Made by a program: the position numbers and the translations under genes
Assembly: GCA_964354795.1 (NCBI GenBank)
Contig: CAYHBB010000003.1
Location: 5,887 to 69,886 of the forward strand
Source of the DNA: an uncultured Planctomycetales bacterium
GTDB lineage: Bacteria; Omnitrophota; Gorgyraeia; Gygaellales; Profunditerraquicolaceae
DNA: 64,000 bases
Direction: 5' to 3'
Notes under the pieces: generated by a model
Databases searched by the model: none
The model's input: the letters and a program-made list of their open reading frames with translations, nothing else
What the model was told of the DNA's origin: nothing
Shown here: piece after piece, positions 53,219 to 53,672 of the stretch
How the letters are laid out: the number at the start of each line of letters is the position of its first letter
Numbering within the stretch: the stretch's first letter is position 1

Positions 53219-53587
53219 ATGATAGAAGTTAAGTTATTGAGATATAGAAGGGCAGATAGGGTCACGGAAAGAAAGATCGGTGACACTTTATTGCTTGTCC
53301 CTTTTAAAAAAACTCCGGGCTCCGGCGTCAAGGGCGTAATGCTTAAAAATGCCAGTGCTCAATTTATTTGGAAATTATGCGAGAAAGGAATGTATCTTAG
53401 GGATATTATTGAATCAGTAACTGCCGAATTTAATGTTGATAAAGACAAAGCTAATTGCGAAATACAAGCCTTGCTGGAGAAACTGCTCCGCTTGGAACTG
53501 GTTATTTGTTTAAACGGCGCCAAGAAGGGGAGCGAGAAAAAAGAAGGAGGAAAGAATGGAAGAAAAGAGAAAATGGGAAAATCCTGA
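53219..53587 (+). CDS. PqqD-family protein (RiPP recognition element / peptide chaperone); the last ~25 codons are low-complexity read-through overlapping the next gene
   Basis: TLLLVPF...MLKNASAQFIWKLCEKGMYLRDIIESVTAEFNVDKDKANCEIQALLEKLLRLELV matches the PqqD profile (.L.LN..a..iW.l.dG..t..eI...l...y.v....a..dv..fl..L...gLi). Confidence 0.6.
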   Translation: MIEVKLLRYRRADRVTERKIGDTLLLVPFKKTPGSGVKGVMLKNASAQFIWKLCEKGMYLRDIIESVTAEFNVDKDKANCEIQALLEKLLRLELVICLNGAKKGSEKKEGGKNGRKEKMGKS

Positions 53588-53672
53588 AGTCGAGCTTATT
53601 TCTATCGATATGGACCAGATCTTTACTGTGGGTTTTAGTGGAGGGTGTTGCGGCTGCTGCTGCTGCTGTTAA
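53556..53672 (+). CDS. 38-aa Cys-rich peptide MEEKRKWENPEVELISIDMDQIFTVGFSGGCCGCCCCC, candidate RiPP precursor (not in the ORF track because it is under 60 aa)
   Basis: ATG at 53556 sits 7 nt after a perfect AAGGAGG Shine-Dalgarno; the stop is TAA at 53670. Of the last 10 residues 8 are Cys, and a GG precedes this core. The gene lies between a PqqD-like gene and a SPASM radical SAM gene. Confidence 0.5.
   Translation: MEEKRKWENPEVELISIDMDQIFTVGFSGGCCGCCCCC

Follow-up and report, generated by a model that had tools for sequence, protein, structure and literature searches.

Results and Discussion

A poly-cysteine peptide gene between PqqD and radical SAM genes

The DNA analyzed here, referred to as the window, is a stretch of 64,000 nucleotides (64 kb) on contig CAYHBB010000003.1 of an uncultured Planctomycetales bacterium, and forms one very large locus that lies mostly on the plus strand. 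Our attention was focused on a small gene therein (Table 1; positions are those of the window throughout), located between the gene of a stand-alone PqqD-family protein and that of an enzyme of the radical S-adenosylmethionine (rSAM) type with SPASM-like cysteines. Its product, MEEKRKWENPEVELISIDMDQIFTVGFSGGCCGCCCCC, consists of a leader, MEEKRKWENPEVELISIDMDQIFTVGFSGG, joined directly to a C-terminal tail, CCGCCCCC, which is an almost pure run of cysteines. As detailed below, the best reading of this gene is that it encodes the precursor in a cassette, very rare and unclassified, that resembles those for peptides made by ribosomes and modified after translation (RiPPs) and is composed of a PqqD protein of the RiPP recognition element (RRE) type, the peptide itself, and the rSAM-SPASM enzyme.

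The initial annotation of this DNA had described the codons of the tail, the AAGGAGG sequence with its ATG, and a 32-nt overlap with the preceding PqqD open reading frame (ORF); all were correct on direct reading. The remaining two frames of the repeat were also as described, the +1 frame belonging to a 74-aa poly-Ala ORF and the +2 frame reading poly-Leu (LRLLLLLL), so that every factual statement was confirmed. The AAGGAGG sequence is unchanged in four of the related loci (L004, L001, L119 and L121), and L003 and L120 instead start from an ATG that lies in frame 15 nt upstream of this position and is preceded by a separate, G-rich Shine-Dalgarno sequence. The overlap of the two genes recurs in the orthologues, where it measures 32-47 nt or takes the form of an ATGA junction (L120). 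The peptide gene is present as a single copy per locus, and no paralogous leader was found in the window or the related loci. Folding of the RNA at 53530-53730 revealed nothing unusual (z=+0.72); the sole terminator-like match is self-pairing of the GCN repeat, within shuffle expectation, and was rejected.

A separate observation concerns the start codon, which has shifted among lineages (window 53541-53558; L001 1831-1848; L003 7636; L120 414). The in-frame ATG 15 nt upstream occurs in L001, L003 and L120, the window and L004 have AAG in its place, and the downstream ATG is missing from L003. In L120 (414), the ATGA junction is formed by the PqqD stop codon and the upstream ATG.

The order PqqD-peptide-rSAM is invariant in every contig that spans all three genes, and at each of these loci PqqD adjoins the enzyme cassette, as an RRE partner would. 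The PqqD protein is kept in six lineages; its tail, encoded in the overlap with the peptide gene, is rich in Lys and Glu, and its best NCBIfam matches are the PqqD chaperones of lasso peptide and GeoRSP systems, all below cutoff. The peptide, for its part, shows what is expected of a precursor, in that its gene is small and co-located and its conserved leader is set apart from the core. The paeninodin lasso leader model matches this leader weakly (E 0.011-0.055), and the leader contains the motif [YW]xxPx[IV], common to peptides encoded beside the nearest rSAM relatives.

The enzyme encoded 3' of the peptide carries the CxxxCxxC motif of the radical SAM core at C18/C22/C25, kept in all orthologues and in distant relatives. 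Moreover, cysteines of the SPASM type (C239-x12-G252-x4-C257, C294xxC297x5C303x3C307 and C326) show little or no variation, and the pattern is retained even in relatives of 23-29% identity, in keeping with SPASM/twitch auxiliary clusters, with the caveat that the predicted local distance difference test score (pLDDT) of the structural model is low in part of this region. In the PDB, the closest sequence is SkfB (E 2e-17), followed by PqqE and anSME. An AlphaFold (AF2) model (pLDDT 71.9; predicted template modeling score, pTM, 0.71) has as best fold matches SkfB, SuiB, BlsE, MoaA, PqqE, CteB, anSME and EpeE, mostly peptide-modifying enzymes, and superposes over its full length on anSME, SuiB and CteB. 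The enzyme has no N-terminal RRE domain, which fits the presence of a separate PqqD protein. Its scores on sacti- and ranthipeptide families did not reach their cutoffs (StsB 82.9 vs 625, SkfB 64.5 vs 300, AlbA 63 vs 850), and the PapB model (28.2 vs cutoff 340) was matched only by a 352-aa protein encoded upstream (52046-53104).

The cysteine frame is the coding frame

To compare the reading frames, we used contigs obtained through relatives of the rSAM enzyme, relatives of PqqD and one peptide hit. These loci (L001/L002, L003, L004/L005, L119 and L120) represent five further lineages, all from metagenome assemblies, and L121 adds a further assembly of the lineage to which the window belongs. 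In every orthologous locus the small ORF in the Cys frame is kept together with its stop codon, and the leader is nearly invariant, with 28 of the 43 columns of a three-sequence peptide alignment unchanged. Over 28 ungapped codons of the leader, the ratio of nonsynonymous to synonymous differences (pN/pS, Nei-Gojobori) is 0.14 in the Cys frame, as opposed to 2.19 and 2.20 in the other two, and 11 of the 17 variable leader columns fall on third positions of the Cys frame. Within the Cys codons of the tail, variation is confined to third positions; it is synonymous only, among lineages whose PqqD proteins are just 67-85% identical.

The other frames fare differently. The 74-aa ORF in the Ala frame starts with TTG, has no Met, and ends in VAAAAAAVNV; stops interrupt this frame in L004, L001 and L003, which identifies the ORF as an artefact. 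The Leu frame contains a TAG four codons before the run at every locus, because the conserved Phe-Ser codons are TTT AGY. As exchanges between TGC and TGT are also synonymous in the Leu frame (CTG/TTG), the tail alone cannot exclude that frame; the flanks do. Thus, the codon-position check that the initial annotation had proposed favors the Cys frame, and no locus conserves the Ala or the Leu frame instead. The annotation's remark that the repeat is readable in three frames, on the other hand, is uninformative in itself, since any run of cysteines is a TGY repeat that reads as Ala or Leu elsewhere.

These patterns of substitution show that the small gene is real, that it codes in the Cys frame, and that purifying selection on it is strong. 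It could be argued that the ORF has no function and arose from the purine-rich end of PqqD together with a stretch of low complexity in the intergenic spacer, given that the peptide is unannotated in the source of the window, is short and of low complexity, and matches no family model. The low pN/pS of the leader, its invariant columns, the conservation of Shine-Dalgarno sequence and stop codon, and the restriction of Cys codons to synonymous change despite the divergence of PqqD make such an explanation highly improbable.

The tail varies in length by whole codons

All tails follow directly after an invariant GFSGG. That of the window is shared by L119 and L121, L004/L005 have CCGCCCCCC, and the remaining tails are CCCCC (L001/L002), CCCCCC (L120) and CCYCCCCC (L003), as listed with their codons in Table 1. 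The core lengths are therefore 5, 6, 8, 8 and 9 codons, and every variant is in frame. Having four distinct lengths requires at least three length-changing events, all of whole codons. No tail contains more than one residue other than Cys, and the codon of that residue, GGC or TAT, differs from a Cys codon by a single point mutation. The initial annotation had predicted in-frame variants of core length, and such variants are indeed found among orthologues; length changes other than multiples of 3, which would have spoken against it, do not occur among them.

By comparison, internal indels are absent from the 2351 aligned codons of six neighbouring genes of the same loci, which encode the asparagine synthase homologue, two rSAM proteins, the 536-aa membrane protein, PqqD and the rSAM-SPASM enzyme. 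The probability that three of three indels would fall within at most 9 of about 2360 codons, if they were uniformly spread, is by simple arithmetic about 6e-8. Hence, either indels truly concentrate in the tail, or this segment tolerates changes of length, or, most plausibly, both hold. Differences of a single codon separate the window from L004 (8 vs 9) and L001 from L120 (5 vs 6), and for these, replication slippage would be the most economical mechanism.

Repeat purity and the microsatellite question

Regarded purely as DNA, the tract is striking. Tandem Repeats Finder (TRF) reports a period-3 array at 53649-53668, in which the stretch 53653-53668 (16 nt) is perfect, with TGC×4 at 53655-53666; no other perfect trinucleotide repeat in the 64 kb reaches 15 nt. 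Likewise, the TGY×4 pattern TGYTGYTGYTGY has its one occurrence in the window here, when 0.03 would be expected. The tail is, in turn, necessarily a TGY repeat because Cys has only two codons. With Cys codons used as in the ORFs of the window (159 TGC : 191 TGT, 45% TGC), four consecutive TGC among five Cys codons have a probability of p≈0.066, and four identical codons of either kind p≈0.20. The tract is thus far beyond chance as DNA, and unremarkable once the run of cysteines is granted. TGC×4 is, in addition, limited to the lineage of the window; the tails of L001, L120 and L004 mix in TGT, and across distinct alleles the TGC:TGT ratio is 16:17, matching the usage in the window. This interleaving at genome-typical frequency argues for selection on Cys, not on repeat purity.

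These data bear on the suggestion of the initial annotation that a (TGC)n microsatellite provides a built-in route to length variants of the core. In its strongest form, the tract would be a simple-sequence contingency locus, that is, a hypermutable sequence evolved to generate variants of Cys number within a population. Being the only trinucleotide repeat of its kind in 64 kb and the only site where indels accumulate among orthologues, with a one-codon difference between relatives as close as the window and L004 (rSAM enzymes 96% identical), it would seem a candidate. However, the perfect stretch comprises just 4-5 units, which is about the lower limit for appreciable slippage and short for slippage at high rate, and the known bacterial contingency loci have much longer and purer tracts. 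Here, no long pure tract is kept across relatives: orthologues are interrupted by TGT, so purity is not maintained, and the tract is identical within the pairs L001/L002 and L004/L005, as it is among the assemblies sharing the window's allele. Besides, variants that are exclusively in frame are what purifying selection leaves under any indel mechanism. We thus regard a contingency locus as unlikely. The in-frame variants and the indel hot spot stand; a conserved pure (TGC)n does not, and slippage would be the likely source of the variants. The tract is evolutionarily labile, and to call it a hypermutable switch goes beyond the evidence; repeat purity in this genome is incidental, and nothing supports an evolved "built-in" device for diversity. 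Since poly-Cys can be written only as a TGY repeat, the microsatellite is, taken alone, a minor point. Overall, the initial annotation was right on the frame and on in-frame length variation, and over-stated its case in viewing the microsatellite as a designed mutational device.

Alternative identities of the cassette

A run of cysteines after Gly-Gly brings to mind streptolysin S, and with it the possibility of a linear azole peptide (thiazole/oxazole-modified microcin, TOMM) in which a YcaO cyclodehydratase would turn the poly-Cys core into thiazoles. The SagA core likewise opens with five contiguous cysteines (PMC4513790), and the tail GGCC..CCC weakly matches the streptolysin S model TIGR03602 (E 0.0026). 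Nonetheless, that match (17.6 bits vs cutoff 35) is confined to the low-complexity tail and was obtained with the L004 allele only. No YcaO, SagB-type dehydrogenase or SagC-like protein was detected among about 60 Pfam-scanned ORFs of the window, nor among the called genes of L001-L005, and the invariant flanking genes are those of PqqD and the rSAM-SPASM enzyme, so a TOMM is very unlikely. Still less can be said for a lasso-peptide-type system, with PqqD as B1, the asparagine synthase homologue as cyclase and the small ORF as precursor, even if the best NCBIfam match of PqqD is a lasso chaperone (E 3.8e-5), the leader resembles that of paeninodin, the asparagine synthase homologue 4 kb upstream scores 266 bits on the lasso cyclase model, and a PF14907 nucleotidyltransferase is encoded in another part of the window. 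A lasso core starts with Gly, Ala, Ser or Cys and carries, at position 7-9, the Asp or Glu that its isopeptide ring needs. The five core variants, made of Cys with at most one Gly or Tyr, contain no Asp or Glu for a macrolactam, and membership fails on this defining acidic acceptor. The core has only 5-9 residues, no B2 transglutaminase-like protease was found, every PqqD match is below cutoff, and the asparagine synthase homologue passes the AsnB model (456 vs 267) and fails the cyclase cutoff (525). A lasso peptide is accordingly hardly credible.

More weight can be given to the idea that the peptide is the precursor of a cofactor or small molecule of the PQQ or mycofactocin type, in which a few terminal residues would be used, the length of the run would be irrelevant, and a neighbouring glycosyltransferase (GT) would decorate the product. 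The architecture, with no fused RRE and a C-terminal core, is that of PqqD/PqqE and MftB/MftC. The rSAM enzyme aligns over its full length to the mycofactocin maturase model TIGR03962 (75.5 bits), and the adjacent GT2 weakly matches MftF (52 bits). Moreover, tail length is free and the GGCC start is invariant, as would be expected if only part of the tail mattered. Both scores are, however, far under the cutoffs (265 and 280), the GT2 gene is not adjacent in L003, and unrelated GT2 genes abound in the window. The last residue of the peptide is Cys, as opposed to the GVY ending of MftA, and Pfam and NCBIfam scans showed neither MftD/MftE-like genes nor a peptidase. On balance, we consider a cofactor precursor rather unlikely.

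Genomic neighbourhood and rarity of the cassette

The features of the locus are collected in Table 1. The same three genes form a conserved block upstream of the cassette in the window, L003 and L004. The third of them encodes a polytopic membrane protein without sequence match in Pfam or the PDB, which by its appearance may be a membrane enzyme of the GT-C or polymerase type. In L003, the gene of the second rSAM-like protein and the downstream GT2/Wzy_C genes are replaced, so they are not obligatory partners; Pfam searches of the L003-specific neighbours were uninformative.

Table 1. Features at and around the peptide gene, with the poly-Cys tails of the orthologous loci
Feature	Position	Strand	Remarks
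Precursor-peptide gene (predicted)	53556..53672	+	38 codons + TAA (53670-53672), ATG at 53556
Shine-Dalgarno AAGGAGG	53544..53550	+	5 nt ahead of ATG; direct reading
Leader / recognition part, M1-G30	53556..53645	+	alignments: near-invariant KWE(K/N)PEVELIxIDxDxIFxVGFSGG
Poly-Cys tail, window, L119, L121	53646..53669	+	CCGCCCCC; TGT TGC GGC TGC TGC TGC TGC TGT; 8 codons
Poly-Cys tail, L001/L002			TGT TGC TGC TGT TGT; 5 codons
Poly-Cys tail, L120			TGT TGT TGC TGT TGT TGT; 6 codons
Poly-Cys tail, L003			TGT TGT TAT TGC TGC TGT TGC TGC; 8 codons
Poly-Cys tail, L004/L005			TGT TGC GGC TGC TGC TGT TGC TGT TGT; 9 codons
Stand-alone PqqD-family protein (RRE-type peptide chaperone), 122 aa	53219..53587	+	PF05402 40.2 bits vs cutoff 23.4
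Radical SAM / SPASM-type enzyme, 348 aa	53716..54762	+	44 nt 3' of peptide gene; PF04055 76.8 bits
74-aa "poly-Ala" ORF, not a gene	53455..53679	+	+1 frame; pN/pS ~2.2
Second radical-SAM-like protein, 352 aa	52046..53104	+	upstream of PqqD; unrelated 448-aa gene in its place in L003
Conserved upstream block	47449..52011	+	also upstream in L003 and L004; no internal indels
Asparagine-synthase-like amidotransferase	47449-49368	+	upstream block
Radical SAM protein, 347 aa	49361-50404	+	upstream block
Polytopic membrane protein, 536 aa	50401-52011	+	upstream block; 76-89% identity window/L003/L004

The window as a whole holds about 12 radical SAM proteins, including three B12-rSAM genes, together with GT-C (PMT_2), GT1 and GT2 glycosyltransferases, methyltransferases, an ABC-2 exporter, a RuBisCO-like protein and a Wzy_C protein. 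In its first part, a 1250-aa protein with two radical SAM domains and a B12-binding domain (2485-6237) is followed by three tandem rSAM-SPASM genes with overlapping ends (6218-7483, 7470-8696 and 8693-10090). Three PMT_2 (GT-C) glycosyltransferases (11282-12877, 14848-16356 and 20933-22600) are interleaved with GT1/GT2 genes, and the same array contains the PF14907 nucleotidyltransferase (16369-17496) and the RuBisCO-like protein (18303-19559), an unusual mix with an operon-like arrangement. At 57024-60416, we observed a module of an extracytoplasmic function (ECF) sigma factor, a 232-aa protein without Pfam match and a CHAT-TPR protein, its CHAT domain being caspase-like and thus conceivably a leader peptidase; the module is also present downstream of the cassette in L001, L004 and L005. 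A c-di-GMP-I riboswitch aptamer (60542-60638, plus strand; 37.3 bits vs gathering 35) follows the CHAT-TPR gene and precedes small ORFs that include 60849-61103 (84 aa) and 61249-61659 (136 aa).

Relatedness within the cassette is discordant: the nearer relative is L001 for the 352-aa rSAM-like protein (92%, with L004 at 87%) and L004 for the 348-aa enzyme (96%, with L001 at 80%), which suggests possible recombination within the cassette. In addition, positions 1-948 of L119 match window positions 52939-53898 with 97-100% identity up to about 53738, and then with 78-93% over the initial 120 nt of the rSAM gene; a drop placed just after the peptide gene, it may reflect either a recombination mosaic or an assembly chimera.

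The cassette is very rare and lies outside every curated family. The relatives of its rSAM enzyme comprise one of 100% identity, followed by others of 80%, 75% and 68% (the last being the fragment P0004), and no other above 33%. In a collection of 5.8 billion proteins, queries with the rSAM enzyme, PqqD and the peptide found only the lineages listed above. A profile built from three peptide sequences retrieved a single cluster (P0021), and an exhaustive HMMER search of 1.84 billion representatives with the peptide profile returned only the same cluster plus spurious repeat proteins; among these, the large repeat proteins P0029-P0031 were rejected, as they match only by summing ten weak repeats (NLISADADN...GALFV). 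When the rSAM alignment was searched against 185,579 species genomes and Joint Genome Institute (JGI) metagenome contigs, only distant rSAM enzymes were found (at most 40% identity), and neither those 111 loci nor the SynChlorMet-like L006 and L007 contain a poly-Cys ORF, other C-run matches being out-of-frame noise. The peptide matched no Pfam or NCBIfam model at cutoff, and searches of the literature, within the collection covered, gave nothing relevant on rSAM RiPPs with poly- or consecutive cysteines.

The nearest non-orthologous rSAM relatives (P0005 and P0006, 30-33% identity) belong to SynChlorMet-like cassettes, and the peptides encoded beside them begin with KKYTTPGIVKVEL, which shows the same [YW]xxPx[IV] pattern. 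Peptides of 60-61 aa in these cassettes, KKYTTPGIVKVELKxEQAVLGQC...C...C (L006 3077-3262 and L007 2927-3109), are candidate precursors sharing the leader motif; both cassettes contain two or three rSAM-SPASM genes and a ScmC-like gene.

Proposed function and significance

We propose that the peptide is translated in the Cys frame, possibly coupled to PqqD through the overlap of their genes, that the PqqD/RRE protein would bind the conserved leader (W-E-x-P-E-V-E-L-I ... VGFSGG), and that it would present the C-terminal poly-Cys tail to the rSAM/SPASM enzyme, which would then modify it at or near the tail. Binding of the leader by an RRE, with presentation of the core to an rSAM enzyme, is how PqqD/PqqE, MftB/MftC and the sacti- and ranthipeptide synthases operate. 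To translation in the Cys frame, binding of the leader by PqqD and modification at or near the Cys tail by the rSAM-SPASM enzyme, taken jointly, we assign a probability of roughly 0.75. As for the chemistry, our best guess is a thioether between Cys sulfur and carbon, of the kind made by SkfB and CteB, which together with some other radical reaction directed at Cys would be most likely; alternatively, Cys might be oxidized in the manner of anSME, or the C-terminus processed in that of MftC. The length of the tail evolves by whole-codon indels in the TGY run, likely through slippage combined with tolerance to length.

Several observations weigh against this proposal. The 348-aa enzyme had no match to the Pfam SPASM model PF13186 at E<0.01 and scored below every NCBIfam cutoff (best 86 bits vs 500; cutoffs all at least 265), and neither a leader peptidase nor a dedicated exporter was recognized beside the trio. 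The cassette is placed inside a very large locus of the glycan type (GT2, GT-C, Wzy_C and ABC-2), so the peptide could serve in a role other than that of a secreted product. Just six lineages are known in total, all of them metagenomic. Concerning slippage in particular, the tract is identical in the window, L119 and L121, which are independent assemblies of a single lineage, and consensus assemblies cannot separate slippage from any kind of indel followed by selection on frame.

The significance of the locus resides in a near-invariant leader joined to a tail that drifts only in its length, between 5 and 9 residues, in a gene always flanked by those of PqqD and an unclassified rSAM-SPASM enzyme. 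It represents a concrete case of a RiPP-like precursor whose core diversifies through codon-repeat indels. Should the enzyme modify the tail, the reaction would be new radical SAM chemistry on contiguous cysteines, and the orthologues would offer a natural series of substrates of graded length on which to study it. Going one step further, the cassette might define an undescribed class of ribosomal peptide, or a peptide-derived thiol cofactor or metal ligand, in which an rSAM/SPASM enzyme and a stand-alone RRE act on a homopolymeric Cys tail, with the number of cysteines tuned among lineages by whole-codon slippage, within, and possibly feeding, a giant envelope-glycan locus rich in rSAM and glycosyltransferase genes. 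We put this forward tentatively, as possible rather than probable; if Cys number is tuned in such a manner, the number of cross-links, sulfur atoms or metal sites would change with it.

Comparison with known systems

With loci of the contingency or codon-repeat polymorphism type, the poly-Cys tail shares the gain and loss of whole codons confined to a trinucleotide-periodic tract; here, however, besides being short, impure in orthologues and identical in same-lineage assemblies, the tract has no on/off consequence. Among well-known ribosomal precursors, only that of streptolysin S has, to our knowledge, contiguous cysteines running on from a Gly-Gly junction. Streptolysin S and clostridiolysin S (SagA family) resemble the present peptide in having a leader that ends in Gly-Gly followed by such a run, but they are processed by the YcaO/dehydrogenase system SagBCD, whereas an rSAM-SPASM enzyme and PqqD are found here; moreover, the run opens a longer core in SagA, and here it constitutes the C-terminus.

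SynChlorMet-like cassettes (ScmC/ScmD/ScmE/ScmF) contain related rSAM enzymes and peptides with the leader motif [YW]xxPx[IV]xxxEL; their peptides carry three spaced cysteines instead of a run, ScmC is absent from the present locus, and matches to ScmD and ScmE are below cutoff. The PQQ (PqqA/PqqD/PqqE) and mycofactocin (MftA/MftB/MftC) systems share with it a stand-alone PqqD, an rSAM-SPASM enzyme without its own RRE, a short peptide with modification, here predicted, at its C-terminus, and genes that are likewise tightly packed or overlapping. Their C-terminal residues are Glu/Tyr or Val-Tyr, in contrast to the Cys run, and the follow-up enzymes PqqB/C/F and MftD/E are absent here, with scores far below cutoffs.

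The closest systems in enzyme sequence and fold (SkfB) are those of the sacti- and ranthipeptides (SkfB, AlbA, CteB, PapB), which likewise combine an rSAM enzyme with SPASM-type cysteines, an RRE/PqqD element and a small precursor in which cysteines are the evident reactive groups. There, the RRE is an N-terminal domain of the enzyme, and here it is a separate protein; there, cysteines are spaced opposite their acceptor residues, and here they form a homopolymeric C-terminal run, an arrangement unlike that of any characterized substrate known to us or met in the literature searched. The enzyme falls below every curated maturase cutoff, and a thioether would here be a prediction by analogy. Nevertheless, the cassette fits the general kind to which these systems belong, in which an RRE-guided rSAM-SPASM maturase would act on a precursor made of leader and core, with modification of the cysteine tail as its predicted outcome.

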